Source of the DNA: a virus
Lineage: Duplodnaviria; Heunggongvirae; Uroviricota; Caudoviricetes
Length of the DNA: 17,877 nucleotides
Virus record (IMG/VR): IMGVR_UViG_3300028601_000028
Span: 1-17,877 of that record
Reading direction: 5' to 3' (one strand)
The notes beneath the pieces were generated by a model. That model did no database searches and had not been told where the DNA came from. It saw nothing but the letters and a program-made list of their open reading frames with translations. Positions 426 through 16,968 of the stretch are shown in pieces. Every line of letters begins with the position of its first letter. The stretch's first letter is position 1. The translations under genes and the position numbers were made by a program.

Positions 426-767
426 ATGAAAAATATAAAAACATATAAATTATTTATTGAAGGATATGAAGAAATTATGAAAGATATGGATTCTTCTGTT
501 GATATTAAACAAATTGAAAACGCCGAAAAAGAAATTCAAAAGTTAAAAGATAATATAGAGCAAAAAAATGAAGAACTAAAAATAAAACTTCAACAATTGG
601 AAGATTTCCAAGTTGATACATTAACAGATGATAATGTCGAAAAGATTGATAATAAAAAGAAAGAAATAGAAGAAACAATTGAGAAGATAAAGGATGATAT
701 AGAGAAACATAAAGAAACAATAGAAGTTTTTAAGAAAAAAATAGAAGATTTAAAATCAAATGAATAA
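426..767 (+). CDS. Coiled-coil protein with N-terminal capsid-targeting-like peptide; probable internal head or scaffold protein
   Basis: 113 aa, K/E-rich heptad pattern. N-terminus MKNIKTYKLFIE resembles the T4 IPII/IPIII targeting peptide MKTYQEFIAE. Confidence 0.7.
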   Translation: MKNIKTYKLFIEGYEEIMKDMDSSVDIKQIENAEKEIQKLKDNIEQKNEELKIKLQQLEDFQVDTLTDDNVEKIDNKKKEIEETIEKIKDDIEKHKETIEVFKKKIEDLKSNE

Positions 768-984
768 TAAGAAAAAGATACAAGAACAACGAATTAGAAA
801 CATCAAATCAAAATATTATTCAAGAATAAAAAGTTTATTCAATAAATCTCTAGGAAAAGATGGTGATGTTTTTTCTAAAATTGATGAAATAGATAATTTA
901 ATAAAAGAATGTGAGAAAGAAATTAGATTATATAAAAATGAACACCCATCACATATTCAAACATTTGAAAGTTTTACAAAATAA
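760..984 (+). CDS. Small basic helical protein with a targeting-like peptide at its C-terminus
   Basis: 74 aa. The ATG overlaps the upstream stop (ATGAATAA, 760-767). Ends ...PSHIQTFESFTK*. Confidence 0.65.
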   Translation: MNNKKKIQEQRIRNIKSKYYSRIKSLFNKSLGKDGDVFSKIDEIDNLIKECEKEIRLYKNEHPSHIQTFESFTK

Positions 985-993
985 TTTTTACAA

Positions 994-3399
994 ATGGCAT
1001 CTAAAATAGACCAAGCATTTATTGATAATTTACAAAACTTTACTAATGCACTAGAAGGTATTGTTGAATTATTAAAAGATCAGGCGGATAAAGGAGATTT
1101 GATAAATAAAATGGCTTCTGCTATGGATGGTGATAAAATATCCAAAATGACAGAAGATATTAAAAATATATTAGATGTATCTAAAAAAGTAGATGATAGG
1201 ACAAAAGAAATATTAAATGAAATTAAAGCAGCCAGAAAACAAAAGGAAACTGGTATGTTTGAAAAAATACAAGATAAAGATAATAAGAAAAAAATTGTTG
1301 ATGGTGTAGGAGTTATAATGTTAATTGCTGGTGGTGTTTTAGCAATTGGTATGGCTTTTAAAATAATAGGTAATATTGATTTCTTATCCGTAGTTGCATT
1401 AAGTGCTGGCATATTAATGATATCACATGCATTTGCTAAAATTGCAGAAATTAAAGAATTAACACCCAAAAAAGTTTTATATACTGGACTTGCTGTTATT
1501 GGTATTGCGGCTGCTGTAACGATATCTAGTTATATATTACAAAATTTTAAACCTATGAGTGGATTACAAATGTTCTCATTTGTTATTGTTAGTACTGCAT
1601 TAGGGGTGGGTGCATATTTTATAATGAAATCATTAAATTCTTTAAAATTAGATAGTCCAAAAGATATAGCAAAAATATTATTATTACCATTGATATTACC
1701 TGCTATTGCTGGTGGTATAGTATTATCTAGTTTATTATTAACGTATATGCAACCGGTTAGTTTTATGCAGGCAATATCAGCAATATTTGTCGGTGCTATA
1801 TTAGCTGTTGGTTCTATTGCTATAATGTTTATAATGAAAGCTACTAAAGGTGTTAATCCATTGCAAATGTTAATGACAACTGCATTAATCCCTTTAATTG
1901 CTGGTGGTATTGTATTATCTTCTATTATACTTCAATATTTTGAACCAATAAAGAACCCAATCGATCTTTTAATTGGTTCAGCAGTTATTGGTTTATCATT
2001 GTTGGCTTTTACTCCTACCGTATGGATATTAGGTAAATTGCCAATACAAGCAATGTTAATTGGATCATTAGGCGTTATTGTTGTATCAGCAGCTGTTATG
2101 ATTTCATCATGGGTATTAAGTGTTGGTAATTATAGTAAATATCCAGATTTAAAATGGGCATTAGGAGCAGGTTTAAGTGTATTATTATTTAGTTTACCTA
2201 TGTTTACATTGGGTATGTTGATGTTAAGTGGTGTTGGTGCAATTGCTTTAGCACTTGGTATAGGTGCAATTGGGATTGTATCCGCTGGTATAGTTTTAGC
2301 ATCTGAAATATTAAGAAAAGGTAAATATGATGTATATCCTGGTTTAAAATGGGCATCAGGTGCAGGTTTATCATTATTTGCTTTTGGTACAGGTATGGTT
2401 ATGTTAGGTTTAATACCATTTGCTGGTAAAATATTAAGTAGGGGTAATGAACAAGTACAAATGGTAGCAAATGCCATAAAAGATGTATCTTTTATTTTAG
2501 CTGGTGGTAATTATACGGGCGGTCCAACAAAAGAATGGGCAGAAGGTATTGGATTATCATTAAGTGCTTTTGCATATGCAGCGTCAGTATCAATGGAAGG
2601 TAAATCATTATTTTCATCTGGTAATTTAAATACTGATAAATTTAGAGAATTTATGGTATCTATTGCTAGTGGTATGATAGATGTTGCAAAAGTTTTAGGA
2701 AATTATGATTGGAATGATAAACACCCAAGTAAAGAATGGGCAGAAGGAGTTGCTACATCACTAGTTCCTTTTATAGATGCATATGATTCTATAAGTCAAA
2801 GAAAAAGAGCAAAAAATGAATCTTTTGGAATTTTAATGAAAGATATCGCAACATCTATGGTAGAAGTAGCAAATATTTTAAAAGGTGGTGATTTTACAGG
2901 TGGTCCTGATGAAAATTGGGCAAATGGTATATCAAAATCATTAAATGCATTTACCGAAAGTATAAGTAATATAGATGACAAAAAGGTTAAAGTTATTAAA
3001 AAGTTTTCAGACGCAATTAAAGACTTAGGTGAAAATATAAACAAATTAAATCAAAGAGGTATAGATAAACTTAATAATTTATCAACAAGTGTAAAAATTA
3101 TATCAGTTATTGATCAAAATAAATTAGATGAAGTATTAGATATATTAGAACAAAGAAAAAAAGAATTATCTAATATTATTGAAAATCAACCAAGAAATAT
3201 AGTAGATACAACAAAACAAAAAATAGCAGATATAATAAACCCAAAATCAGAATCAGAAGATAATTCTATATTAGAACAAGCTCAAATGAATAAAAAATTT
3301 GATATGATATTAGAAAAATTTGATATTCTATTAGAATTAATGACAAAACAAAATGCAGCATCTGATGTTGGATTAGAAGATGATGAACCTACTAAATAA
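994..3399 (+). CDS. Tape-measure-like protein
   Basis: 801 aa, predicted all-helical. Charged coiled-coil termini flank a long Ala/Gly/Ile/Leu-rich core with ~60-67-aa periodicity. No catalytic motifs seen. Same window as baseplate genes. Confidence 0.65.
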   Translation: MASKIDQAFIDNLQNFTNALEGIVELLKDQADKGDLINKMASAMDGDKISKMTEDIKNILDVSKKVDDRTKEILNEIKAARKQKETGMFEKIQDKDNKKKIVDGVGVIMLIAGGVLAIGMAFKIIGNIDFLSVVALSAGILMISHAFAKIAEIKELTPKKVLYTGLAVIGIAAAVTISSYILQNFKPMSGLQMFSFVIVSTALGVGAYFIMKSLNSLKLDSPKDIAKILLLPLILPAIAGGIVLSSLLLTYMQPVSFMQAISAIFVGAILAVGSIAIMFIMKATKGVNPLQMLMTTALIPLIAGGIVLSSIILQYFEPIKNPIDLLIGSAVIGLSLLAFTPTVWILGKLPIQAMLIGSLGVIVVSAAVMISSWVLSVGNYSKYPDLKWALGAGLSVLLFSLPMFTLGMLMLSGVGAIALALGIGAIGIVSAGIVLASEILRKGKYDVYPGLKWASGAGLSLFAFGTGMVMLGLIPFAGKILSRGNEQVQMVANAIKDVSFILAGGNYTGGPTKEWAEGIGLSLSAFAYAASVSMEGKSLFSSGNLNTDKFREFMVSIASGMIDVAKVLGNYDWNDKHPSKEWAEGVATSLVPFIDAYDSISQRKRAKNESFGILMKDIATSMVEVANILKGGDFTGGPDENWANGISKSLNAFTESISNIDDKKVKVIKKFSDAIKDLGENINKLNQRGIDKLNNLSTSVKIISVIDQNKLDEVLDILEQRKKELSNIIENQPRNIVDTTKQKIADIINPKSESEDNSILEQAQMNKKFDMILEKFDILLELMTKQNAASDVGLEDDEPTK
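1552..2919 (+). repeat. Degenerate ~60-67-aa protein repeats inside the tape-measure-like gene
   Basis: Pro-anchor codons at 1552, 1753, 1945, 2143, 2338, 2524, 2725 and 2905. The last five units carry P-x-x-x-W-A-x-G (Trp codons at 2155, 2350, 2536, 2737, 2917). Confidence 0.8.
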
Positions 3400-3424
3400 T
3401 TTTAAACTAAACCCATATTTTTAA

Positions 3425-3435
3425 ATATATAAATA
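3425..3435 (+). promoter_or_regulatory. Candidate late promoter ATATATAAATA
   Basis: Intergenic, with the ATATATA core 16 nt upstream of ATG 3448. Contains the T4 late-promoter octamer TATAAATA (3428-3435). AT-rich background lowers specificity. Confidence 0.45.
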
Positions 3436-3447
3436 AAAAAAATTCTT

Positions 3448-3909
3448 ATGCTTAAAAAGATAAAATATTTTTATTTATATCTAAAAATTTTAAATATAAA
3501 TAAAGATAAATTAAAAATAGAACATGATCTATCTATTGATTGGGTATATAGACTTTATAAAACTTATAATCTAACAGAAATAGATATAGAAAACACTAAA
3601 AGTTTAGGACCAAAATATTTTAATGATGTTTTAAAAAAAGAAATAAATAGAATAGATAAAACATTTATTGAAATAGGATTAAGTGAATTAATCGGATTAA
3701 TGGAAGTTATTGAACTTAATGATAATCAAGTAGGAATGGCATTTAGATTTAAATTTTTTAATACTGCTAAATTATTTAAAAGAATAATATGGTTATTGTT
3801 ATATTTAATTGGTGGATTAATTGGATTTTTATTTTTTTCATATTTGGGAATTGGGATTGGACTTTTATCAATTTTTATAATATACTTAATCACAATAATA
3901 TTTGTATAA
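3448..3909 (+). CDS. Hypothetical membrane protein with a C-terminal transmembrane hairpin
   Basis: 153 aa. C-terminal IIWLLLYLIGGLIGFLFFSYLGIGIGLLSIFIIYLITIIFV is long enough for two TM helices. Confidence 0.8.
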   Translation: MLKKIKYFYLYLKILNINKDKLKIEHDLSIDWVYRLYKTYNLTEIDIENTKSLGPKYFNDVLKKEINRIDKTFIEIGLSELIGLMEVIELNDNQVGMAFRFKFFNTAKLFKRIIWLLLYLIGGLIGFLFFSYLGIGIGLLSIFIIYLITIIFV

Positions 3910-3925
3910 AAAATAATTTAAATAT

Positions 3926-4345
3926 ATGATTAAAACAGACCAGTATTACGAACTAGATGATGAAATTATTGATTTTTTTAAAAAAATCGAACAAGAATTT
4001 GTGTTTGCGATTGACTTCAATTATACGTTTCAATCCAATAATAAACAGAAAAAATTAATACAAATAAAAAAGATACCAGATAATTATGCGGTTTTATTAA
4101 ATAGTGAGATATTAGTTACTGTAAATGATACTTTATTTGATAAATTAGATGAAGAAATAAAAACTATTTTATTTGAACAGGAAATAGATAAAATAATTCC
4201 AAATTTAGAAAAAGGTACATTTTCAATTACTCAACCTACTTTAAAAACATCAACAGGTATAGTTAAAAAACACACTTATGAAAAAGTCGAAAGAGCAAAT
4301 GAAGTAGAACGAATGTTAATCAAAGGATCAGATAAGGAAGAATAA
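3926..4345 (+). CDS. Phage metallopeptidase-like fold with a degenerate active-site motif
   Basis: 139 aa. EILVTVNDTLFDKLDEEIKTILFEQEIDKI follows the spacing of phage metallopeptidase-like proteins (..I.in...w..l.......ll.HEL.H), but the HExxH position reads QEIDK. Recognised by eye only. Confidence 0.45.
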   Translation: MIKTDQYYELDDEIIDFFKKIEQEFVFAIDFNYTFQSNNKQKKLIQIKKIPDNYAVLLNSEILVTVNDTLFDKLDEEIKTILFEQEIDKIIPNLEKGTFSITQPTLKTSTGIVKKHTYEKVERANEVERMLIKGSDKEE

Positions 4346-4370
4346 AAATTTTTAAAAAATAATTTAAAAT

Positions 4371-4588
4371 ATGATCAAAAAACAAATTGAGCAAAAATTA
4401 AGAAATTATTCACTAGTTAAGATATAACATTAATAATTGCTATAATGGCTTTGGGTATTAGTATATGGTCGCTATCCATATCATATAGTGTTAAAAAAGA
4501 ATTAAATTGGTTAAATAATAAACAAGATTATGTTATAGAAGGTTTAATGTTTAAAGATTTTAATATGGATAAAAAAAATAATGATTAA
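4371..4588 (+). pseudogene. Small single-TM ORF, apparently frameshifted or using an alternative start (ATG 4445 or ATA 4424)
   Basis: ATG 4371 reads MIKKQIEQKLRNYSLVKI* (TAA 4425-4427). An overlapping frame open from 4421 to 4588 reads DITLIIAIMALGISIWSLSISYSVKKELNW...KKNND*. This fills an otherwise empty 245-bp gap. Confidence 0.4.
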
Positions 4589-4590
4589 AT

Positions 4591-5412
4591 ATGAGTGAAG
4601 ATAAAAAATTTAAAGAAGTATTAGATAAAGCTAAAGAATTAGAAAATATAGACTTTAAAAAAGTTAAAGATTTTAATTATGATGAATATTATAAAACAAT
4701 TGAAGAAATAGCTAAGAAAAATAATACATTTAAAAATGAGGAAGCTGAAAATTTAATAAAAAATGACAATGGTGTATTATTAAATATTGACTTTTATAAT
4801 GAATTAAATAAAAAGAAAGAAACCATTTTAAATTTAATTAGAAAGTATGATCCAAATACAGATATTATTAAAAATATGTCTGAACATGATGTGGATAAAG
4901 TATATGCGATATCTAATTATTTAGTTAATTCATATATTCAATATTTAAATGAAATGACATTTAATTTTGAATTAAAAGTAGAAGAATTAAAATTTTTAAA
5001 TAAAATTTTAACAAATGTTATTGAATACAATGGTGATGATGTATTTAATTATGTTGAATTATATGAAAATTTTTGGCAACATGTTATGACTGAATATGAG
5101 TCTGATAAATCAAAAGATGTTTATGTTTTTAAAGTAAGTATTAAAAAAATATTAATTTTACATCATTTGATAAAGAATTATAAAGTTAGAGGAATAACAA
5201 ATGAATTTAAATATTTTAGAAATATTTTATATAAAATTGCACAAACAAATAAGTTATTTAATGCCTACAATATCATTGTAGAAAGAGTTAAAGATGATTG
5301 TAAATTATGGGGTATTGCTTTAGATGAAGTTCTTTCAAATAAACAGAAAGATAATAAAGTAGAAGATATAAAAGAAATAACAGATACAAAACAAGAAAAA
5401 AAGGAAGTTTAA
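4591..5412 (+). CDS. Hypothetical alpha-helical protein
   Basis: 273-aa ORF with codon usage like its neighbours, ending inside a terminator hairpin. No motif recognised. Confidence 0.85.
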   Translation: MSEDKKFKEVLDKAKELENIDFKKVKDFNYDEYYKTIEEIAKKNNTFKNEEAENLIKNDNGVLLNIDFYNELNKKKETILNLIRKYDPNTDIIKNMSEHDVDKVYAISNYLVNSYIQYLNEMTFNFELKVEELKFLNKILTNVIEYNGDDVFNYVELYENFWQHVMTEYESDKSKDVYVFKVSIKKILILHHLIKNYKVRGITNEFKYFRNILYKIAQTNKLFNAYNIIVERVKDDCKLWGIALDEVLSNKQKDNKVEDIKEITDTKQEKKEV

Positions 5413-5424
5413 AACTTCCTTTTT
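5398..5424. terminator. Bidirectional intrinsic terminator
   Basis: AAAAAGGAAGTT-TAA-AACTTCCTTTTT is a 12-bp perfect inverted repeat with A/T tracts on both sides, between convergent genes. Confidence 0.85.
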
Positions 5425-5438
5425 CTTTTAATACAAAA

Positions 5439-5833
5439 TTATTGTGATGATTTATATGTTTCTCCTAATACATAAGCACCAACAAACGGTGTTAATGCAC
5501 CGAAGTATGTTGATAAATCTATTAAAGGTAAAGGTTTTAATATTGAAAAAACACCAACAATAGTCCATAATAATATAACTATATATGTTAATATTTCTCT
5601 TTTTGATGAATTTCCTGATTTGAATACTGTTGTTTTATTAGATTTTCTAGCAGATTCTCCCCATACATAAGCAATAATAAAACCAGTTAATGATATAAAA
5701 TATACTGACAATGTTTTAAAATCATTTACACCATTAGTATTAAAATACATTAATGATGCAAAAAATATCCATAAAAATATAACTATAAAACCAAAAGTAA
5801 TCTTTTTGAATTTATTGGTATTGGTAAATTCAT
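5439..5833 (-). CDS. Four-TM membrane protein built from two tandem two-TM repeats (holin-like); true start lies upstream of the called ATG at 5750
   Basis: The frame stays open upstream of 5750 to 5861 and adds KKITFGFIVIFLWIFFASL. This aligns with the second half KREILTYIVILLWTIVGV. The repeat ends also align: FISLTGFIIAYVWGESARKS vs FGALTPFVGAYVLGETYKSS. The ATG at 5833 is one base out of frame. Confidence 0.7.
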
Positions 5834-6157
5834 TTATGATTTTAATTTTTTTAAAATATATTTAACATCATATTCTTTAACTTCATGTTCATTTGTATCC
5901 TTATTTATAATATCTAATAATACTAAATTACCCTTTAACCCAATTATTTGACCTGTTATACCATCAATTTCAATGAATTTACTTGATCTTAAAATATCAT
6001 AAGGGTTTCTCATAGATTTATTAGGTAAATTATTAAACATTGGTTTATTTTTATCATCCTTTGTTCCTTTTATATGATCATCATTAAAATCATTTAAATT
6101 TAAAATATCTTTATTATTTTTTGATTCATTTAAGAAATCATTAAATTTTTTAATCAT
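5834..6157 (-). CDS. Capsid-targeting-tagged hypothetical protein; possible C-terminal SH3-like barrel
   Basis: Start reassigned from 6190 to the ATG at 6157 (MIKKFNDFLNE-SK...), which removes the overlap with the upstream gene and puts the shared tag at the N-terminus. 107 aa. Confidence 0.75.
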   Translation of the reverse strand: MIKKFNDFLNESKNNKDILNLNDFNDDHIKGTKDDKNKPMFNNLPNKSMRNPYDILRSSKFIEIDGITGQIIGLKGNLVLLDIINKDTNEHEVKEYDVKYILKKLKS

Positions 6158-6160
6158 TTT
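6125..6160. repeat. 36-bp perfect direct repeat, copy 1 (encodes MIKKFNDFLNE on the minus strand)
   Basis: TTCATTTAAGAAATCATTAAATTTTTTAATCATTTT is identical to 6609-6644 (offset 484 bp). The flanking bases differ on both sides. Confidence 0.95.
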
Positions 6161-6164
6161 TGTA

Positions 6165-6641
6165 TTATTCTTTTTTAGATAATTCATCATAAATGGAATT
6201 GATTAAATTATTAATAGATTTATCAGATATATTTGTAGTAAAATTAACTAATGATTTAATTAAATTTATAATTTTATTTATATCTTTTGTATCCAAATAA
6301 TAATTGTATATATTTGTATCTTTCCATATATAACTTTTATTATTCTTTATATTATAAAGACTAAAAGATATTAATTGTTGTCTATGACCTGTATATATAT
6401 CAAATGAAAAATGAACATTATATCCATCTTCTTTTACATTTATTATTGGTTTTACTATTATTTCAGCATCTATTTCTTGAATACCTGATGATGTTTTATA
6501 ATAAACCTTAATATCTTTATCAGGTAAAATATCATCAATGACTTCAACTATTCTTTTTTGGTATTCATTTTCACCTTTTTTGAAATCAATGGGTTCATGT
6601 ATATTTTTTTCATTTAAGAAATCATTAAATTTTTTAATCAT
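6165..6641 (-). CDS. Capsid-targeting-tagged hypothetical protein
   Basis: 158 aa starting MIKKFNDFLNE-KN. The rest shows no similarity to the neighbour carrying the same tag. Confidence 0.8.
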   Translation of the reverse strand: MIKKFNDFLNEKNIHEPIDFKKGENEYQKRIVEVIDDILPDKDIKVYYKTSSGIQEIDAEIIVKPIINVKEDGYNVHFSFDIYTGHRQQLISFSLYNIKNNKSYIWKDTNIYNYYLDTKDINKIINLIKSLVNFTTNISDKSINNLINSIYDELSKKE

Positions 6642-6644
6642 TTT
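6609..6644. repeat. 36-bp perfect direct repeat, copy 2
   Basis: Identical to 6125-6160. Confidence 0.95.
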
Positions 6645-6659
6645 AGTTATTTTTATTTT

Positions 6660-8042
6660 TTAGTCTTCTGTATTATTATCATCATCAGATACTAAAGTCA
6701 TTTTACCACTAGGTGCAACATCTATTATTCTACCATCTTTTAATTCATATCTATTAAAAAAATCATTAGGTGATTCTATTTGTTTTGCTCCCTCTACTTC
6801 TTCTTCTGTTAATTGATCAGAAATATCAACTGATTCATTTATTTTAGATGATTTTTTAGCTTTCTTAATAATACCTTTTTTTAAACCTTCTGGTAATTTT
6901 CTTTGTTTTGGTGTTAAATATTTTTCTTCATCACTTTTATTAATATCATTCTTTTTATCTTTTTTATCATCTTTCTTATCATCGTCGCAGTCATTGCATT
7001 CTTCTTTATCTTTTTTATCATTTAATTTTTTACCGGATTTTTTCATTTTTTTAATAATTCCTTTCTTTAATCCTTCTGGTAATTTTCTTTGTTTTGGGGT
7101 TAGATATAATTCTTCATCATTCTTAGATTCATATAAAAAAGAATCATCATAATCAATACCTAATATATTAAATATATCTTCATATACACTAGCTAATCCA
7201 TTCCTTTCTACAAAATATATCAATTTTTGTTCCCATGTTGTAGCTTCTAATAAATTATTATCTTCTGCAAATGATTTAATATCACTTTTTACACTTTCTG
7301 ATTCTTCTCCTTCAATAATTGAGATTATGTCATTAGTATATCCATAAATATCCATATCATCTAAGATTTCGGTTATTTCATTAATTTGCCATTTTTTTAA
7401 TTTTTTATTTGATTCAAATAATTTTTTATCTTTTGATTCGTATACTGTTTCATTGAATGCGTTTTCTATCATATCTTCAGTTGCTCCAATAAAAGATAAT
7501 GCTTCTTTTTTATCACTATCTGACATCTTTCTAAATGTTACAAGAACATCATTTGTTTCTTCTAAATCATATTTAGACATTAATTTATATAATTTATCAA
7601 ATCCGTCCTTATTAATATCATAGTTTTCTGGACTTTCATGTAAATCAATAAATAATTCTTCCATTTCACCAATAGGTTTATCTATTTCAAATTCAGGTTT
7701 TTTAGATTCGTTTATTGATTCTTTTAAGTTACTCCTTTTTTTAAAATCGGTAAATCTAGATAATTTCTTAATATTAGATGGTTGTGTGGATGCAGCAGCA
7801 ATTGATTTATTATTAGCATCATTTTTGGAGAAATGTTCCCATGTATCTATTTCTCTTTTACTACTAAATGGATTATCCATATAATAAGCATTAGGCATTT
7901 TATTCTCTTTATATTTACTTGTGGTTCTTACTTTATGTTCTATATCACCACCTTCACTATCAATTGTTCTCTTCAAATTTTGAAGTTGCTTTTTAGTTCT
8001 ATCTCTTAATAGAGATTCATCTATTTTATTATTTCTTTTCAT
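6660..8042 (-). CDS. Highly charged probable prohead core or internal polyprotein with many putative protease sites
   Basis: 460 aa with eight [ILV]-x-E-S motifs (IDES, LKES, INES, LHES, VYES, LFES, LYES, INES), internal tag-like segments (IDTWEHF; IKKLSRFTDF), and a duplicated 20-aa basic motif. Confidence 0.6.
   Translation of the reverse strand: MKRNNKIDESLLRDRTKKQLQNLKRTIDSEGGDIEHKVRTTSKYKENKMPNAYYMDNPFSSKREIDTWEHFSKNDANNKSIAAASTQPSNIKKLSRFTDFKKRSNLKESINESKKPEFEIDKPIGEMEELFIDLHESPENYDINKDGFDKLYKLMSKYDLEETNDVLVTFRKMSDSDKKEALSFIGATEDMIENAFNETVYESKDKKLFESNKKLKKWQINEITEILDDMDIYGYTNDIISIIEGEESESVKSDIKSFAEDNNLLEATTWEQKLIYFVERNGLASVYEDIFNILGIDYDDSFLYESKNDEELYLTPKQRKLPEGLKKGIIKKMKKSGKKLNDKKDKEECNDCDDDKKDDKKDKKNDINKSDEEKYLTPKQRKLPEGLKKGIIKKAKKSSKINESVDISDQLTEEEVEGAKQIESPNDFFNRYELKDGRIIDVAPSGKMTLVSDDDNNTED
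6861..7106 (-). repeat. Two copies of YLTPKQRKLPEGLKKGIIKK (7047-7106 and 6861-6920)
   Basis: Identical 20-aa peptide 62 codons apart, with synonymous DNA differences. A CxxC (CNDC) in a K/D-rich linker lies between the copies. Confidence 0.9.
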
Positions 8043-8060
8043 TTTTTCTTTTTATTTTTT

Positions 8061-8100
8061 AATTATATATAAAAATCTAATATTAATATTTAATATATAT
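8061..8100. promoter_or_regulatory. Back-to-back candidate late promoters (ATATATA) for the divergent genes
   Basis: Minus-strand ATATATA at 8064-8070 is 21 nt from ATG 8042. Plus-strand ATATATA at 8093-8099 is 22 nt from ATG 8122. Confidence 0.55.
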
Positions 8101-8121
8101 TAAAAAATATAATTAATAATT

Positions 8122-8640
8122 ATGAAAAAAATTAAGTCTTTTAAAAATTTTATAAAAGAAAATTTAGAGTTAGCTGAACCAAAAGTTAAACCAACTACAA
8201 AACCTACAACTAAACCAACTACAAAACCAGGTAGACCATCTCCATTTAGAAGAGATAAACCATCTGTTATACCAAAACCAAAAGCTACTGATAAACAAGT
8301 TGCTGATAAATTTCTTAAATTAACAAAAGGAAACAAAGAAATTGAAAATTACTTAATGAAAAAATATTCTAAAAATATTACCGAAAAATTTATGGGTAGT
8401 AAAGGAAATGAAAGAATATCTATTGATTTAAGAGGACCAGAAGGCAATGCTTATGCGATATTAGGATTAGTGAATAGATTATGTAAACAATTAAAAGATG
8501 TTGATCCTGAAAAATATGATAGTGAAAGAATAACAAATGAAATGATGTCAGGGGATTATAAAAATCTTGTAAATACATTTGAAGAATATTTTGGAGATTA
8601 TGTTGATATATATAATTCAGATGTTCTTGATGAATATTAA
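8122..8640 (+). CDS. Tagged two-domain protein: targeting peptide, Pro/Thr/Lys linker, then a C-terminal GPEGNAY...SGDY domain
   Basis: Starts MKKIKSFKNFIKE, then LAE, KPTT repeats and ITE. The C-terminal IDLRGPEGNAYAILG...EMMSGDYKNLV...FGDYV resembles a small conserved hypothetical of T4-like phages (recalled, not searched). Confidence 0.7.
   Translation: MKKIKSFKNFIKENLELAEPKVKPTTKPTTKPTTKPGRPSPFRRDKPSVIPKPKATDKQVADKFLKLTKGNKEIENYLMKKYSKNITEKFMGSKGNERISIDLRGPEGNAYAILGLVNRLCKQLKDVDPEKYDSERITNEMMSGDYKNLVNTFEEYFGDYVDIYNSDVLDEY
8188..8229 (+). repeat. 12-bp-period coding repeat (KPTT x3 plus KP)
   Basis: aaaccaactaca aaacctacaact aaaccaactaca aaacca. Confidence 0.9.
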
Positions 8641-8667
8641 AAATAATATAAAAAATAAAATAAAATA

Positions 8668-9915
8668 ATGAAATTAAAAAAGTATAAAGAAATATTTGAA
8701 GAAGCAGATATTAAAGATGCTCTAGATGATGAATATTTAAAAAATGTTGAAAGAAAAGCTCGTCAACAATACGGTTATGGTCCATCTCGTCAAGAAATGA
8801 TGGAAGCAATGGATTTAATAAATAAAATATCAAGAATTCAAAGAGGACATGAGAAAGAATTAGAAGAAATTGGAATAAATGTACTTAAAAAACATTATCC
8901 TATTTTAAATGATATTGAATTAGATGTTAAAATAGTTAATCCTGATGATGAAGAAAAAATGGAAATGGCTCAAAAAATGATGGATGATGATCAAGAAGAA
9001 ATGAATTTTGATGGAAATGAAGATTATGGACCAGATGCACCACAAGATGAAATAAATAAAAGAAAAATTATTAATAATTTAATGCAAGGTGAATCACAAA
9101 ATGTACATCCAATGCTTTTTGATTGTAAAGAAGAAGTAGATAAAATTAGTACTGAACTTATTAATCTTCATATGAGACATCTTGAAATTAATAAGAAATT
9201 TGATTGGTTTGATCAAGTATCATTAGAAGAAATGATGGAACAAGCACCACAAATGGTAAATGCAATGGAAACTGATTATGAAGAAGATGAAGAAACAGGT
9301 GATACAAAACCAAAAATTAAAGCAAGAGTACTAGATTTAGTAATGCTAATACATGAAGTAGTTAAAGGTATATATGAACTTATTGCCGCAAAGGCAATAC
9401 CAGAAGATTCAGTTATGGCTAATAAAATATTATCAAAAACTGATAGTTTAAAAGATGAGCAACAAGATATTCGTTATGGACCATATATTGCAGCCGATTT
9501 AAGAAATTATTTAAACGAACATTTTGAAAAAATAATGATTGGTTATCAAGGAGATAATGTAAAGGAATTAATTTATGGTGAATTGGTTATGTTGCCGGCA
9601 TCAGAATTTATTGACGTTATTAAAGGAATGTTAAGTAATGATACAACTGTTACATTAAGAAAAATTAAAAAAATAGTTGACGATGTTGTTAATGAAATAG
9701 ATAATTATTATAAGAAATCAACAATGTCTGAATTTGAATATGAAGATGATGAAGATATTTTAGATTTACCAGTTAAAGAAGAACCTAAAAAAGAATTAAC
9801 TGATAAAGATTATAAGAATATGGGACAAAATGAATTAAATTACCAATTAAATTTAGCTATAGACAATGGAGATTTTGAGTTAGCTAAAAAAATATCAGAA
9901 TTTATAAAAGATTAA
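8668..9915 (+). CDS. Acidic helical protein with an N-terminal tag-like peptide and a C-terminal UVR-like coiled-coil motif
   Basis: 415 aa. Starts MKLKKYKEIFEE and ends ELNYQLNLAIDNGDFELAKKISEFIKD, matching the UVR (UvrB/UvrC) pattern L...A....DFE.A..I. Confidence 0.65.
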   Translation: MKLKKYKEIFEEADIKDALDDEYLKNVERKARQQYGYGPSRQEMMEAMDLINKISRIQRGHEKELEEIGINVLKKHYPILNDIELDVKIVNPDDEEKMEMAQKMMDDDQEEMNFDGNEDYGPDAPQDEINKRKIINNLMQGESQNVHPMLFDCKEEVDKISTELINLHMRHLEINKKFDWFDQVSLEEMMEQAPQMVNAMETDYEEDEETGDTKPKIKARVLDLVMLIHEVVKGIYELIAAKAIPEDSVMANKILSKTDSLKDEQQDIRYGPYIAADLRNYLNEHFEKIMIGYQGDNVKELIYGELVMLPASEFIDVIKGMLSNDTTVTLRKIKKIVDDVVNEIDNYYKKSTMSEFEYEDDEDILDLPVKEEPKKELTDKDYKNMGQNELNYQLNLAIDNGDFELAKKISEFIKD

Positions 9916-9930
9916 AAATAATAAAATATT

Positions 9931-10314
9931 ATGAAACATGTAAAATCTTTTGATAATTTTAATAATGAATGGATTATAGAAGAAAGTGAAACTGAAATAA
10001 TAACACTTTCATTAAATGAAAGTATTGATCAGGTTAAAAAAGTTGATGATGGTATAATATATAGAGGAGAAAAATTTACAGGTTATAATAAACCTAAAAA
10101 ATATACAGGTAAAGGAAAATTTAAAAAAAGAGTTTTGGCTAAAGAAGGTGATAAAATTAAAATCCTAAACTATGGACATAAAGATTATGAAGATTATACA
10201 ACACATAAAGATAAAGATAGAAGAAAAAATTTTAGAGCAAGACATAATTGTGATCCAGTTAGTAACTTATCGAAATTAACAAAAAGATATTGGGCTTGTC
10301 AAGATTTATGGTAA
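9931..10314 (+). CDS. Tagged small basic protein, DUF5754-like (HKD..RR..F..RH.C...YW.C..LW)
   Basis: Starts MKHVKSFDNFNNE...LNES. The C-terminal LNYGHKDYEDYTTHKDKDRRKNFRARHNCD...RYWACQDLW resembles a viral family seen in T4-like phages and NCLDVs. The Pfam name is from memory. Confidence 0.55.
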   Translation: MKHVKSFDNFNNEWIIEESETEIITLSLNESIDQVKKVDDGIIYRGEKFTGYNKPKKYTGKGKFKKRVLAKEGDKIKILNYGHKDYEDYTTHKDKDRRKNFRARHNCDPVSNLSKLTKRYWACQDLW

Positions 10315-10360: not shown

Positions 10361-11257
10361 TTATTTAAAAGGAATTTCATTTTTTAAAATATCTTCTATA
10401 TTTTGATCATATCTTATTCTTATAAGTTTAATATTATTATTTTGACAGTATTCTGTTTTAATTTGGTCTCTTAATTGTCTAGTCATTAAATTTTTTTTAT
10501 TTTTTTCAAATCTATATTTCTTAAAATGTTGCTCACCGTCATATTCGACACATATATTATAATTTGGTAAATAAAAATCAAATTTTAATTTTCTTTTATA
10601 TTCACATCCTTCAAACATTTTTTGTGATTCATATAGAATATTATTTTTTTCAAAAAATGATTTAATTATCTTTTCATTTTTACTTAATTTACATTTTGGG
10701 CAACCAGAACCATTCATATGATTTTGCGCATTTTGTTCAAATTCACCATGTTCATCACAAATTATTTTAATTTTTGATGTTAAATTTATTAAATTTACTA
10801 AAGAATAATCATATTTAAAATCGTGTTTTAAATTACATCTGTTAATATATTCATCTCTTATAATTTTATTATTTTTAGCACATTTTGGACATCCAGAACC
10901 ATTAATATGATCAATTGGATTTTGTTCAAATATACCATGCTCTTTACAAATAATTCTAATTTTTGTTTTTGCATTTATATAATTTACCAAAGAATAGTCA
11001 TATTTAAAATTATGTGTAATATTAGACTTTTTAATAATATAATCATTATCTCTTTTTAATGTTTTAGAACATAAATAACAACCATGACCACTTAAATGAT
11101 CATCTGGTCTTTGTTCAAATACACCATGTTTATGACAAATAATTTTAATTTTTGTTTTATTATTAATATAATTCATTAAAGAATAGTCATATAAATTATT
11201 ATGAACCTTATTAAAATCATTAATAACCTGCTCTTTTGTTTTTCTTTTATTTGACAT
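10361..11257 (-). CDS. Free-standing Hef/Vsr-like (EDxHD-type) homing endonuclease with three zinc-binding repeats
   Basis: Three 63-aa repeats YDYS...IICxxHG.FEQ....H..G.GC..C, then SKNE(195)...FD(227)FY...VE(238)YDGEQH(244)...RD(264). Confidence 0.8.
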   Translation of the reverse strand: MSNKRKTKEQVINDFNKVHNNLYDYSLMNYINNKTKIKIICHKHGVFEQRPDDHLSGHGCYLCSKTLKRDNDYIIKKSNITHNFKYDYSLVNYINAKTKIRIICKEHGIFEQNPIDHINGSGCPKCAKNNKIIRDEYINRCNLKHDFKYDYSLVNLINLTSKIKIICDEHGEFEQNAQNHMNGSGCPKCKLSKNEKIIKSFFEKNNILYESQKMFEGCEYKRKLKFDFYLPNYNICVEYDGEQHFKKYRFEKNKKNLMTRQLRDQIKTEYCQNNNIKLIRIRYDQNIEDILKNEIPFK

Positions 11258-11260
11258 AAT

Positions 11261-11275
11261 AATTATATATAAAAA
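11261..11275 (-). promoter_or_regulatory. Candidate promoter TTTTTATATATAATT
   Basis: 15-nt sequence identical to 8061-8075. It overlaps the T-tract of the adjacent terminator, and its ATATATA core is 6 nt from ATG 11257. Confidence 0.45.
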
Positions 11276-11300
11276 ATCCCTCTTTTTAAGAGGGATTTTT
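11272..11300 (-). terminator. Intrinsic terminator directly downstream of the tRNA
   Basis: AAAAATCCCTCTT-TTT-AAGAGGGATTTTT is a 13-bp perfect inverted repeat with a T6 tract on the minus strand. Confidence 0.9.
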
Positions 11301-11301
11301 G

Positions 11302-11373
11302 AGCAAAGACACCGGAATCGAACCGAACCCTATTTACTGGAAGTAAATCATGCTACCGCTACACCATTCTTGC
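11302..11373 (-). tRNA. trnG-UCC: tRNA-Gly (anticodon UCC), atypical acceptor and T stems, no encoded CCA
   Basis: Minus strand: GCAAGAA TG GTGT AGCGGTA GCAT G ATTTA CTTCCAG TAAAT AGGG TTCGG TTCGATT CCGGT GTCTTTGC T. It has a perfect anticodon stem, a TTCGATT T-loop, a GG in the D-loop, and G1-C72, C2-G71 and U73 (bacterial Gly identity elements). Confidence 0.85.
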
Positions 11374-11390
11374 ATTTTGTATATTACATA

Positions 11391-11400
11391 TATTATATAT
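11391..11400 (-). promoter_or_regulatory. Candidate promoter for the tRNA (ATATATAATA)
   Basis: ATATATA at 11394-11400 is 20 nt upstream of tRNA G1, contains TATAAT, and overlaps the stop codon of the upstream endonuclease. Confidence 0.45.
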
Positions 11401-12280
11401 CAGTTAAAAAGTTTAATTTTTTTTCAATATTTTCATTATATTTTATCCTTATTAATTTAATATTATTATTTATACAATATTCATTTTTTATTTGATCTCT
11501 TTTTAATCTATTTTCAAAATCATCTTTTTTATCAAAAAATTCATTTATTATAAAATGCTGTTTACCATCATACTCTATACAAATATTATAATCAGGTAAA
11601 TAAAAATCAAATTTTAAATTTCTTTTATATTTACAACCTTTAAAATATTTTTGATAATCATATTTTATACTATTATATTCTAGAAATTTTCTTATTTCTT
11701 TTTCTCCTTTTGATTCATTACAAATAGGACAACCTTGTCCTAATAAGTGTTTGGCAGGTGTTTGTTTAAACATACCGTGTTTAGGGCATATTATTTTTAC
11801 TTTTTTTATATTATTTATATAATTAACTTGACTATAATTATAATAATTATTATGAATAATATTAAATCTTAATATAACATCTGATTGTTCTGAAGTCCTG
11901 TTTTCATTATAACAAATAGGACAACCATTTTTCTTAATTATATGATTCTGTGGTGTTTGTTTAAATATACCGTGTTTAGGGCATATTATTTTTACATTTG
12001 TATGTGCATTTTTATAATCTACTAATGAATAGTCATAAAAATTATTATGTATTATATTTGATTTTAATTTAAATGTTATGTTGGTATATTTTTTATTTTT
12101 ACTACAATATGGACATCCACTGCCCATTAAATGATGATCTGGTCTTTGTTCAAAAACATTATGTTCTTTGCATATTATTTTAACTTTAATTTTAGAATTT
12201 TTATAATCTACTAATGAATAATCATATCTATCACCATGTATTTTATTAAATTGATTGATAATTTTTTCATTACTTTTCAT
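11393..12280 (-). CDS. Second Hef/Vsr-like homing endonuclease with three zinc-binding repeats (paralog of 10361..11257)
   Basis: Repeats start at aa 19, 82 and 147. Nuclease residues E193, D225, E236, H242 and D262 (SKGE...FDFYLP...IEYDGKQH...RDQIK). Confidence 0.8.
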   Translation of the reverse strand: MKSNEKIINQFNKIHGDRYDYSLVDYKNSKIKVKIICKEHNVFEQRPDHHLMGSGCPYCSKNKKYTNITFKLKSNIIHNNFYDYSLVDYKNAHTNVKIICPKHGIFKQTPQNHIIKKNGCPICYNENRTSEQSDVILRFNIIHNNYYNYSQVNYINNIKKVKIICPKHGMFKQTPAKHLLGQGCPICNESKGEKEIRKFLEYNSIKYDYQKYFKGCKYKRNLKFDFYLPDYNICIEYDGKQHFIINEFFDKKDDFENRLKRDQIKNEYCINNNIKLIRIKYNENIEKKLNFLTDI

Positions 12281-12366: not shown

Positions 12367-13878
12367 ATGTTAATAGATTATGAATATAGGCAAAAGAAGT
12401 TAATTGTAAGTTACATTGATGATAATGGTAATATAAAGTTAAAATATTATCCTTGGAATAATCCCACTAAATTTATAATATGTGATGATAATGACAGTGA
12501 TAAATCAGGTAAATATGTTACTTGGGATGGTAAATCTATAAAAGAAATATACACACAACACCCGAATAGATATTCGGTTTATGATTTTTTGGATAAATTA
12601 CCAGAAGAAGAGAAAAAATTATTGTTCGAATATAAAGAACCTAATATATTCTTTATAGATATAGAGAACGAAATAATTGATAAAAAACCACAACCTCATT
12701 TGGCTGAATCTGCTATTCAATCAATATCTATTGTTAATAAAGATAAAGTTTTAGTTTTAGGTACTAAGAAATTAAATAAATCGGAAATAGATTCAATTAA
12801 AAGTGGTATAAATAACCATTTCGATAAATTAAAAACAAATTATGATTTTATGTATCGTTATTATAATAGTGAGTATGACATGTTACTTAACTATTTTAAG
12901 TTAATGGTACCAAAAATGTCAGTATTAACGGGATGGAATTTTGTGAATTATGACTGGGTTTTTTTGGTGAATAGAGCAAGGAAATTAGGTATTGATCCTA
13001 GTATTTCTTCATTTACTGGTAATTTAAGATCATCTTGGATGCAGAATGATCATTCTGAAATACCTGCACACCGTGTCATAATTGATTATATGGAATTATA
13101 TGCAAAATGGGATACGTCAATAAAAGTTAAAGAATCACAAGGGTTAGATTTTGTTTCTGATAATGTACTTGGTGTTAAAAAGATTAATTATGAAGGTAAT
13201 CTTAAATATTTATATGAAAGTGATTATCAAAAATTCATATTGTATAATGCTATTGACTCAGCACTAGTTCAGCAGATACACTTAAAGATGAAATATATTG
13301 ATATTTTATATGGTATTGCAACATTATCAAAAATTAGAGTTATTGATGCATTTACTACATTAACAGTAACAGAAGGTATATTAAGAGAGAAAATGAGATT
13401 TGAAAAGAATGTAGTATTTGTTAAAGATGATACAAAGAAAGATGATACTATTGATGACGATATGAATGTTAAAGGAGGTTGGGTTAAAGATCCGATAGTT
13501 GGAATGAATAGTTGGACTATTTGTTTTGATTTTGCATCTCTATATCCTACAACTATGCAAGAATTTAATATATCTGCTGATTCTTATATTGGTAAAGTTA
13601 TAAAAGATAGAGGTAAAAGTATAAGTGACATGATAGATAAATTGCAATCTGGTGGAGATGTATATTCGGTATTTAATGGACATAAAATAAAATTAGATAA
13701 AAACTCAATTATAACATTAAATGGTGCTGTTTTTAGGAATGAAGATGGTGTAGTTAAAAAAGTTATGGGTAATATTTACAAAGAAAGAAAAAAATATAAG
13801 AAAATGATGATGTCTGCAAATGAAGAATTGAAAGATTTGCAAAATGAATTAGAAAGATTAGAAAAAGAATTAAATTAA
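12367..13878 (+). CDS. polB: Family-B DNA polymerase, N-terminal subunit (3'-5' exonuclease, motif A and first fingers helix); split or truncated
   Basis: ExoI FID(98)IE, ExoII GWN...YDW, ExoIII YNAID, KGGWVKDP and motif A D(388)FASLYP are present. The protein ends ERKKYKKMMMSANEELKDLQNELERLEKELN*. Motif B (KxxxNSxYG) and motif C (YGDTDS) are absent. Confidence 0.9.
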   Translation: MLIDYEYRQKKLIVSYIDDNGNIKLKYYPWNNPTKFIICDDNDSDKSGKYVTWDGKSIKEIYTQHPNRYSVYDFLDKLPEEEKKLLFEYKEPNIFFIDIENEIIDKKPQPHLAESAIQSISIVNKDKVLVLGTKKLNKSEIDSIKSGINNHFDKLKTNYDFMYRYYNSEYDMLLNYFKLMVPKMSVLTGWNFVNYDWVFLVNRARKLGIDPSISSFTGNLRSSWMQNDHSEIPAHRVIIDYMELYAKWDTSIKVKESQGLDFVSDNVLGVKKINYEGNLKYLYESDYQKFILYNAIDSALVQQIHLKMKYIDILYGIATLSKIRVIDAFTTLTVTEGILREKMRFEKNVVFVKDDTKKDDTIDDDMNVKGGWVKDPIVGMNSWTICFDFASLYPTTMQEFNISADSYIGKVIKDRGKSISDMIDKLQSGGDVYSVFNGHKIKLDKNSIITLNGAVFRNEDGVVKKVMGNIYKERKKYKKMMMSANEELKDLQNELERLEKELN

Positions 13879-14955: not shown

Positions 14956-16968
14956 TTAATTATTTTCGTCATAAACATTACCATCAGGGTATTTTCTATT
15001 ATATTTATTATCTTCTTTCTTGTTTGTATTTGGAAATTTTTGGTTATAAGTTCCGTCTTCTTGTAAGTCACCTTCTGGGAATTTTTGATTGTATTGGCCA
15101 TCTTCATGAACATCTCCTTCTGGGAACTTTTGATTATACTGCCCATCTTCATGAACATCTCCTTCTGGAAATTTTTGATTGTACTGCCCATCTTCATGAA
15201 CATCTCCTTCTGGAAATTTTTGATTGTATTGACCATCTTCATGAACATCACCATCAGGATATTTTTGGTTATAAATTCCGTCTTCATGGACATCACCATT
15301 AGGGAACTTTTGATTGTACTGCCCATCTTCATGAACATCTCCTTCTGGAAACTTTTGATTGTACTGCCCATCTTCATGAATATCACCATCAGGAAATTTC
15401 TGATTATATTGAGCATCATTTTGATCTATGTCATCACCGATATTTAAGATATCATCATTTTCAATATCTCTATTTCTTGTTCTTCCTTCTTCGTCATATG
15501 CATTTGTATAATTATCTCTCCATTGGTTTCTACTCTTTATAGGATCAACATTATTATTTTTATTCTTTTTATTTCCTTTTATATCATCTAATTTTTTATC
15601 AATAAAATCACTAACAAATTTATCAACCATTCTAACTTTATCACCAGCTTTATCATAATAAACATTAACATCAGTTAGTGTTACTCCTACCTTTTCATTT
15701 AACCAATTTTGTGCTTTATCTGCTAGTTCAGTAACTTCATTTTTTAATTTATTAACAATGACACCTCTTATTTGTCTTGTTTCGTTTCTTAAATATGATA
15801 ATAATTTACTTTTCTTAGTATTATCTTGTTCACCAATGGGTGATACAACACCGGGTATTGTATCATCAAAATATTCAAAATATATATCATGCTCTGGTAA
15901 TCTCTTTCTAAAATCTAGTATATCAGAATTTCCTATAATGTGATCCCTCATCATTACTTTACTATATGACTTAAAATTTATTTTAAAGTTACTTTTAGAT
16001 ATATTTGGTTTTTGAGCATTATATCCACCTCTAATAATTTCACTTTCAAAATTTTTAGATTCAAAAAAATCAAATTGACAGTCATGTAAAATGTATATCA
16101 TTTTAGACGGAATGCTATTCATCATATTATCATCAGTTTTCATATTTCTATAATCGCTTATTATTAATGACATATCAAATCTTAAAAGATTTTCGGGTAT
16201 CAATACTCTATGTGTATCATAAGAATAAACTAAATTATTATATAATTCTGTCAAATATTGTGTACTCATAACAACATCTTCTGATATTGTAAATATTATT
16301 TTATCTTCTGGATAATTTATTATTTTTTTAGTTAATACATCTAATCCTGATATTGACTCTATATAATGTTCTTTATAACTTTTATCTTTATTTATTTCTG
16401 GAAGATTAGATGGAAATATTTTTTCAACTTCTAATTTAAATTTATAATATAAATCTAATCTATTATCATTACCTATTTCTGGTATATTAGAAGAATATTC
16501 ATTAATGAAATTTTCTATATTTTTAATATTATTATTAGTTGTAAATAATGGAGAATTATCATAATCAATTTTAATATCAAAAACTAAATATGTTGGATCT
16601 TGAAATTGGTCAACACTATTTTTATTAAATCCTATTGTTATGTATGTGTTTAAATTTTGTTTAAACACATCACTTTGATTATCAAACATACCAAATCTAT
16701 TAGTACCAGCATATTTATTTTCATTACCACTTATTTTTTTAACTAATTTTTTATTTTGTAAACCTGGTCCAAAATGTTCACCTGACTTACTAACATATTC
16801 ACCATAACCATCAACATATCCTAAATTTTCTTTAGATTTAGTATCTGATGTATTGTCTAATAGATTAGAATCTTGTACATTTTTATTTTGTTGACTACTT
16901 TGTTTAGCCTCTTTTCTTAACTGTTTATTAATTTGTCTATTTGACATTGGTGCTCCTGGTTTGGCCAT
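14956..16968 (-). CDS. Probable baseplate or tail-tube-fold protein with ten C-terminal 15-aa repeats
   Basis: 670 aa, lying between the hub and gp5-like genes. The central globular region (QDPTYLVF...YIESISGLD...ISEDV...LIPENLLRFDM...YILHDCQFDF) is tentatively tail-tube-like, by eye only. Confidence 0.5.
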   Translation of the reverse strand: MAKPGAPMSNRQINKQLRKEAKQSSQQNKNVQDSNLLDNTSDTKSKENLGYVDGYGEYVSKSGEHFGPGLQNKKLVKKISGNENKYAGTNRFGMFDNQSDVFKQNLNTYITIGFNKNSVDQFQDPTYLVFDIKIDYDNSPLFTTNNNIKNIENFINEYSSNIPEIGNDNRLDLYYKFKLEVEKIFPSNLPEINKDKSYKEHYIESISGLDVLTKKIINYPEDKIIFTISEDVVMSTQYLTELYNNLVYSYDTHRVLIPENLLRFDMSLIISDYRNMKTDDNMMNSIPSKMIYILHDCQFDFFESKNFESEIIRGGYNAQKPNISKSNFKINFKSYSKVMMRDHIIGNSDILDFRKRLPEHDIYFEYFDDTIPGVVSPIGEQDNTKKSKLLSYLRNETRQIRGVIVNKLKNEVTELADKAQNWLNEKVGVTLTDVNVYYDKAGDKVRMVDKFVSDFIDKKLDDIKGNKKNKNNNVDPIKSRNQWRDNYTNAYDEEGRTRNRDIENDDILNIGDDIDQNDAQYNQKFPDGDIHEDGQYNQKFPEGDVHEDGQYNQKFPNGDVHEDGIYNQKYPDGDVHEDGQYNQKFPEGDVHEDGQYNQKFPEGDVHEDGQYNQKFPEGDVHEDGQYNQKFPEGDLQEDGTYNQKFPNTNKKEDNKYNRKYPDGNVYDENN
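14959..15408 (-). repeat. Ten tandem 45-bp coding repeats, consensus YNQKFPEGDVHEDGQ
   Basis: Exact 45-bp period with no spacers. Units at 15139-15183 and 15184-15228 are identical in DNA, and the unit at 15319-15363 differs by one base. The two C-terminal units are degenerate. Confidence 0.95.

Follow-up and report, generated by a model that had tools for sequence, protein, structure and literature searches.

A T4-like capsid-targeting peptide may mark dozens of unrelated proteins in an uncultivated lineage of low-GC phages

In phage T4, otherwise unrelated small proteins begin with a capsid-targeting sequence (CTS), an N-terminal peptide of ∼10–13 residues with the form M-K-x-[YF]-x-x-F-[IL]-x-E (reviewed in PMC9026906 and PMC3012670). 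Amber-suppressor analysis of the IPIII CTS, as one of these reviews summarises it, assigned residues 4 and 7 to targeting and residues 8 and 10 to processing (PMC9026906, citing Mullaney and Black 1996); the same account states that Asp at position 10 blocks processing while targeting is kept, and it considers that the CTS may let T4-like phages load various proteins (PMC9026906). Here we analyse a 17,877-nucleotide stretch of viral DNA (IMG/VR record IMGVR_UViG_3300028601_000028, Caudoviricetes; hereafter the window) in which six genes begin with a peptide of this kind, referred to below as the tag, and we follow the tag through the rest of the phage and its relatives.

The conserved positions of the tag (aromatic, x, x, aromatic, [ILV], x, E) are the four mapped positions of the T4 sequence (Y4, F7, I8 and E10). 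Both phages encode a gp21-type protease, and in both the genes of the proteins behind the peptide, the cargo, vary between relatives. They differ in the number of tagged genes, 3–4 in T4 against 39 to ∼49 here, and in the consensus, which here adds an I-K pair ahead of the first aromatic and mostly has Asn before the Glu. A pattern search of the T4 genome returned MKTYQEFIAE twice (IPII and IPIII), MKTFKEFTST (IPI) and MKTFKEFIKE (gp61.1), and the core expression also matched the known maturation site of gp23, FGSFLTE/AEIGG (the slash marks the cleavage position). The gp61.1 match (18966-19130, a hypothetical protein of 54 residues) fits the CTS pattern in full and lies outside the known internal-protein genes.

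Phages phiKZ and SPN3US load many proteins into the head (∼50 in SPN3US), as is proposed here, and several of these are trimmed after x-x-E by a gp21-related protease (PMC5694885, PMC7411985, PMC10052503). Their propeptides, however, are mostly long (>100 residues in several SPN3US head proteins) and have no single short consensus, whereas here a tag of 10–14 residues is reused on dozens of proteins. The Dar proteins of phage P1 are enzymes that are packed in the head and delivered with the DNA (PMC9024508, PMC12810830). Their packaging depends on a helper hierarchy (Hdf, DarA); a shared cleavable tag recognised by an S77 protease is not involved. The Dar set includes the methyltransferase-helicase DarB, whose N-terminal region is needed for packaging. 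Literature searches, which did not reach subscription journals, turned up no paper that brings the CTS together with huge, jumbo or mega phages. The CTS has been known since 1996; what seems to be undescribed in the papers searched is its scale, with dozens of tagged genes across a lineage, and the presence of the same core in the building block of a protease-fused scaffold.

A common N-terminal peptide on unrelated proteins

Contig C70 is 81.9 kb long, and its first 17.9 kb form the window. This contig is one of 11 (C1, C18, C27, C32, C34, C39, C41, C45, C55, C70 and C79) that have a guanine-cytosine (GC) content of 20–23% (22% overall; 239 kb in total) inside a bacterial assembly of 60% GC. 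The low-GC contigs carry T4-type genes for the gp23 capsid protein, gp20 portal, gp18 sheath, gp5 and gp17 terminase, and for gp43 polymerase, gp41, gp44, gp32 and UvsX. They are therefore fragments of a single large phage of the T4 superfamily that ended up in the bin of an unrelated bacterium. The 60% GC bacterium is an unlikely host of the phage; Bacteroidota-type lipoprotein or signal starts on phage proteins suggest another. A total of 301 open reading frames (ORFs) were called naively on the 11 contigs, from the first ATG of the longest non-overlapping frames.

Between 39 and ∼49 of the 301 ORFs (13–16%) start M-x(1-5)-[FY]-x-x-[FY]-[ILV]-x-E; a score matrix built on the tags yielded the 39, and ∼10 looser ones, including that at 8668 in the window, were picked by eye. 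The strict T4-like pattern [FY]..F[ILV].E, with the first aromatic at residues 3–9 as in nearly all tags, has 16 N-terminal matches against 0.2 ± 0.4 in shuffles of the 301 ORFs, and against 0.16 when the composition of the N-termini was kept; an excess over shuffles was the test that the earlier note on this DNA had set beforehand. The density of the strict pattern at N-termini is 55 times that elsewhere. At a matrix score of at least 14, 31 of 34 matches lie at the called start or within 15 residues of it. Two high-scoring tags are internal: ILRYDQFLNEE at residue 79 of G000:C32:30467-31495, which has an N-terminal tag as well, and IIKFDNFINES at residue 100 of G000:C39:585-1376. These two ORFs either have long propeptides or are each two genes read as one. 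An [ILVM]-x-E closes 30 of the 39 tags, in 25 cases at residues 10–14; the aliphatic position is held by I (14), L (10), V (5) or M (1), and the residue preceding the Glu is usually Asn.

The motif was also recovered without prior assumptions. When all gapped four-position patterns were scanned without bias in a reduced alphabet, [ILVM][KR]x[FYW]xx[FYW] ranked first, at 24 N-termini where 0.77 were expected (p=1.5e-27). In two relatives described below, this pattern had p=3e-27 (LR756501) and a variant of it, MKYIKEYEEFLNE, was the top pattern with p=4e-32 (LR756500). By contrast, the scan gave nothing better than p ∼1e-7 in T4 (35% GC) or in the Tenacibaculum phage PTm1 (30% GC). The motif is therefore no by-product of AT-richness, and a generic N-terminus of AT-rich phages was ruled out by these two controls together with the shuffles. 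Substitutions within the tags are conservative (F/Y, I/L/V), and a few tags have Asp for Glu with the aromatics kept (for example MIKKFKHYIND). Since synonymous codons are used in the tags as in the rest of the genome (for example Ile ATT 48%, ATA 50%), selection acts on the tag at the level of the protein.

All six N-termini that the earlier note had listed (at 426, 6157, 6641, 8122, 8668 and 9931) were found where it had placed them, and its statement that the tail, baseplate, polymerase and nuclease genes lack the motif at their starts is true for the window's genes of the tape-measure-like, baseplate, gp5, DNA polymerase and Hef-like endonuclease proteins. It had also called the tagged proteins unrelated. 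BLASTP among the 39 cargo parts found no two alike, which rules out a single paralogous family as the source of the tags; the description fails for the genes at 6157 and 6641, which are distant tandem paralogues (∼30% identity to each other's orthologues). The cargo families that can be named are an S-adenosylmethionine (SAM) methyltransferase (tRNA-methyltransferase PHROG), an RNase_T/DEDD exonuclease, an NFACT-R RNA-binding domain, an HD phosphohydrolase, ankyrin repeats, DUF5754 and, by a weak match, DHH.

Cargo genes turn over between close relatives. Gene order is the same in sister contigs at 99% identity. Samples with sister contigs are JGI 3300050213 and 3300029822 and ENA ERZ724040. 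A relative whose orthologue of the 415-residue protein (gene 8668..9915) is 85% identical has gained a new tagged gene of 59 residues (MKLKRFNDIIINE) and has no DUF5754 gene; there, the orthologues of genes 5834..6157 and 6165..6641 show 58–69% identity, against 73–87% for their neighbours. The tags of these two paralogues, both MIKKFNDFLNE here and with 36 identical bases in common, are both MITKFNDYLNE in the 85% relative (L173:1826-2652). Alteration in concert of two adjacent tags points to gene conversion between the starts of the genes.

Protease-scaffold fusion, capsid protein and promoter-like motif

The phage encodes a prohead protease candidate fused to a repeat-containing scaffold (protease-scaffold; Table 1). 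Its first ∼160 residues match Peptidase_S77 (PF03420) with 27.3 bits in one search (cut-off 27) and 25.2 in another, and the corresponding proteins of relatives reach 45 bits. The ORF matches annotated gp21 genes in tblastn searches, and its GEFDHP and VSSRAAG motifs, which are invariant in 31 relatives, line up with the residues that serve as catalytic His and Ser in T4 gp21 (PDB 5JBL). Against PDB sequences, the protease domain alone had T4 gp21 (5JBL) as its first, weak match (E=0.097), and for the profile of the whole protein the sole match was to a designed coiled coil, within the repeats. Near the N-terminus, I-V-E at residue 10 and L-N-E at residue 20 resemble LIE-9 of T4 gp21.

Residues 261–450 consist of 11 tandem 14-residue units, x-I-x-Y-S-E-Y-[ILV]-A-E-N-L-D-K, and each unit contains the core of the tag. 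Proteome-wide, [FYW]..[FYW][ILVM].E has 55 matches, of which 12 are in the protease-scaffold (11 in the array) and a further 23 are N-terminal tags. In T4, gp22 has no such aromatic repeats. Beyond the array, the protein has an acidic tract with EEPVQTQEEEII three times and VQEPVEGQ three times, and a conserved helical C-terminal domain.

The gene adjoins that of a gp23-type capsid protein (PF07068, E=2.6e-27), which contains W-M-S-E-Y-A-E-L-H-Q-I-N-E/N. The general form among relatives is W-M-S-E-Y-A-E-x-H-x-[MILV]-N-E-N, and the site I41-N42-E43/N44 is kept as [MILV]-N-E-N in 34 of 35 of them. From this conservation, the capsid propeptide is predicted to be cleaved between E43 and N44. The matching sites in scaffold, capsid protein and tags point to one common site of the [aliphatic]-x-E/N type.

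By the protease-scaffold protein, the nearest phages in the GenBank collection are LR756501–LR756504 and LR745206 (47–54% identity), uncultured phages of 634–735 kb. LR756500 comes next, then the Tenacibaculum phages PTm1 and PTm5; Lak phages match in the protease domain only. The Mahaphage-type huge phages among these (LR756501–LR756504) share the protease-scaffold family with its 14-residue repeats, a fusion for which no published description was found. A further 80 relatives were gathered from IMG/VR by alignment query (queries with single proteins gave 1 relative for the protease-scaffold and 0 for the 415-residue protein), and all 80 have 9–16 repeat units. Tags are abundant in LR756501, with 33 N-terminal matches in 542 ORFs (20.7-fold enriched), and in LR756500, with 20 (16-fold); PTm1, whose scaffold repeat differs, lacks the tags, with 2 matches genome-wide. 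The same YSEY[ILV]AE repeat and the same tag core recur in the 80 IMG/VR relatives, LR756501 and LR756504, so that covariation of tag and repeat, both constant, is uninformative and presence against absence is the sole comparison possible. A link between repeats and tags is proposed here. Lak phages have no 14-residue repeats and no such tags in 40 kb around the protease gene. Their protease-scaffold has an acidic tract in place of the repeats, and in Prevotella phage Lak-C1 (L014, 7788-8655 and 13179-13403) several small ORFs share a different N-terminus, MIKFKEKKK or MIKFKKK. A DNA pattern for MIKKFNxFxNE found 3 IMG/VR contigs, a pattern too specific for measuring spread.

A promoter-like motif, [AT]ATATATA, lies ∼27–35 nucleotides (up to 50 in a few genes) upstream of the start codon in the portal, protease-scaffold, sheath and baseplate operons, and it precedes 17 of the 39 tagged genes against 0 of ∼10 replication genes. 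In the relatives the share of genes with the motif in front is 90% for the protease-scaffold, 63% for the capsid protein and 38% for tagged genes, against 23% for the remaining ORFs. In this clade the motif probably plays the part that TATAAATA has as a late promoter in T4. Many tagged genes stand in same-strand arrays behind another tagged gene. On the phage contigs and in relatives' loci (L041–L120), the motif, at 25–45 nucleotides from the start codon, precedes several homing-endonuclease genes as well as head and tail operons.

Proposed role of the tag and its alternatives

On balance we favour reading the common N-terminal peptide as a T4-type CTS that doubles as a propeptide and is used far more widely than in T4. 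Unrelated proteins in unusually large number are probably packed and injected by this phage. In this scheme, the two aromatics would dock the cargo onto the scaffolding core during prohead formation, the gp21-type (S77) protease would cut at [ILV]-x-E and free the mature cargo inside the head, and the freed cargo would be ejected together with the DNA. The protease is fused to scaffold repeats that have the same aromatic-x-x-aromatic-[ILV]-x-E core, and we propose on this ground that scaffold, capsid protein and cargo come under one recognition rule. By the T4 rule for position 10, proteins with Asp tags such as MIKKFKHYIND may be loaded and left uncut. A capsid-targeting role had been put forward in the earlier note; at the sequence level every prediction open to testing agreed with it, and packaging and injection would follow by analogy with T4. 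More tentatively, the tag may copy the core of the scaffold's 14-residue repeat, so that cargo would co-assemble with the coiled coil through its aromatic pair and be freed by the same cuts that dismantle the scaffold.

Several observations weigh against a CTS on this scale. A few tags sit 8–100 residues inside the called ORF, and nine of the 39 have no clean [ILVM]-x-E, being degenerate or ending in Asp. The number of tagged genes is ∼10 times that in T4, and the lack of aromatic repeats in T4 gp22 places the link between tag and scaffold outside the established model. The S77 match stands at the family threshold and is borderline for this copy; the promoter enrichment of tagged genes is real but modest. 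The cargo includes a tRNA-methyltransferase-like protein and an exonuclease, which could equally work in the cytoplasm. In addition, the ORFs were called naively and the contigs chosen on GC alone, and our searches found no cultured relative with the tag.

The tag might instead be a helix that docks on some other partner or site (a phage hub protein, a chaperone, the membrane or a replication compartment, for example), its likeness to the scaffold being that of a common amphipathic-helix pattern. The conserved order of aliphatic, basic, aromatic at i, aromatic at i+3 and aliphatic at i+4 fits such a helix, some of the cargo enzymes have plausible cytoplasmic roles, and gene 426..767 lies in a neighbourhood of tail genes. 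We nevertheless think this unlikely: it leaves unexplained the invariant Glu two residues past the aliphatic position, the same [ILVM]-x-E/N in the capsid propeptide and in every scaffold repeat, and the position-for-position match to the mapped T4 CTS, and it comes without a candidate partner. If the tag were solely a site for the phage protease, serving late activation or inactivation in the cytoplasm of proteins that are not packaged, conservation of the processing determinants would be expected, as is found. According to a 2026 preprint, phage protease enzymes activate immunity by the cyclic-oligonucleotide-based anti-phage signalling system (CBASS) through proteolysis, so action on non-virion proteins is possible (PMC12991175). 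Conservation is strongest, however, at the two aromatics, which in T4 serve targeting and not cleavage, and the Asp-for-Glu variants keep these aromatics. T4 gp21, moreover, is active only inside the assembled prohead, and we regard cytoplasmic cleavage as distinctly improbable.

Confinement to N-termini, with basic and then hydrophobic residues, could also suggest a degradation or timing signal for a host protease such as ClpXP. That would account neither for the internal scaffold array and the capsid site nor for the absence of the tag in relatives with a different scaffold repeat, and we consider it very improbable. An origin at the nucleotide level, in which a translation-start context or a recombination cassette of an AT-rich genome would leave a peptide without a role, is scarcely credible. 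The bases common to the 6157 and 6641 genes, the joint change of their tags in a relative and the frequency of A-rich starts in AT-rich genomes speak for it; it is largely refuted by the codon usage within the tags, by substitutions that are conservative in the protein, by the lack of such enrichment in PTm1 and T4 and by the shuffles.

If the tag works as in T4, the injected proteins of uncultivated phages could be read directly from genomes, in a lineage that includes relatives of the largest phage genomes known. Each phage would then offer dozens of proteins, mostly of unknown function and turning over between close relatives, as a catalogue of candidate first-minute effectors, and the tag would be a second natural, very short loading signal for packing foreign proteins into phage heads. 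Any anti-defence or takeover role of the cargo is speculation that draws on its domain types (methyltransferase, DEDD exonuclease, HD, NFACT-R, ankyrin). Should the tag indeed mimic the scaffold repeat, the injected proteome could be derived lineage-wide from a rule on sequence alone, at 13–16% of genes and with nucleic-acid enzymes among them, and the repeat would suggest a candidate for the binding partner of the T4 CTS itself.

Tagged genes of the window and neighbouring features

The six tagged genes are listed in Table 1. The tag of gene 426..767 is a variant with its Glu one residue early (F-I-E) and has no [ILV]-x-E. The start at 6157 is an internal ATG of the ORF 5834..6190, and no family match was found for the protein of gene 5834..6157. 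In gene 8122..8640 the tag is followed by a linker of KPTT repeats and then by a C-terminal domain assigned to phrog_1933. Podophage homologues of the DUF5754 cargo of gene 9931..10314 align with it from residue 35 on and therefore lack the tag.

Table 1. Positions of the tagged genes, the protease-scaffold gene and the promoter-like motifs (window coordinates, except for the protease-scaffold on contig C32)
Feature	Position	Strand	Description
Tagged gene	426..767	+	113 residues, coiled-coil-like; tag MKNIKTYKLFIE at 426..461
Tagged gene	5834..6157	-	107 residues from ATG 6157; tag MIKKFNDFLNE at 6125..6157
Tagged gene	6165..6641	-	158 residues; tag MIKKFNDFLNE at 6609..6641
Tagged gene	8122..8640	+	172 residues; tag MKKIKSFKNFIKE at 8122..8160
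Tagged gene	8668..9915	+	415 residues; leader MKLKKYKEIFEE at 8668..8703
Tagged gene	9931..10314	+	127 residues; tag MKHVKSFDNFNNE at 9931..9969, I-I-E at residue 17; cargo DUF5754 / phrog_7595
Protease-scaffold	C32:16770-19223		817 residues
Promoter-like AATATATA	8092..8099	+	30 nucleotides upstream of ATG 8122
Promoter-like TATATATA	8064..8071	-	29 nucleotides upstream of divergent untagged gene 6660..8042

The 415-residue protein of gene 8668..9915 has 174 homologues and is conserved across the clade. Its close orthologues start MKLKKY[KS][EQ][IL]FE/AD and others MKRVKENLFE/AKLNLP, and distant ones, on 600-kb contigs, start MKNFSKFLEE/ITIKGN or MIKRFSDFLNE/TTLKNN. A leader of 10–13 residues that ends in [LI]-x-E is thus kept throughout, as would be expected of a processed leader. 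The gene had been described as a looser match to the motif; it is loose in this phage, but the canonical tags of its distant orthologues make it a true member of the family.

Among the untagged genes, 6660..8042 (minus strand) encodes an acidic protein of 460 residues with an internal duplication, YLTPKQRKLPEGLKKGIIKK(M/A)KKS, and its orthologue in the 85% relative is shorter by 103 residues. The protein of gene 14956..16968 (minus strand), in the baseplate region, ends in ∼8 tandem 15-residue units (DGQYNQKFPEGDVHE), encoded by a 45-base-pair repeat at 15031-15408 of the window. Two DUF723/Hef-like endonuclease genes (10361-12280 and 12367-13878) with internal repeats of 189 base pairs adjoin a family-B DNA polymerase gene, which ends after the exonuclease and the first polymerase motifs, its second half not being adjacent.

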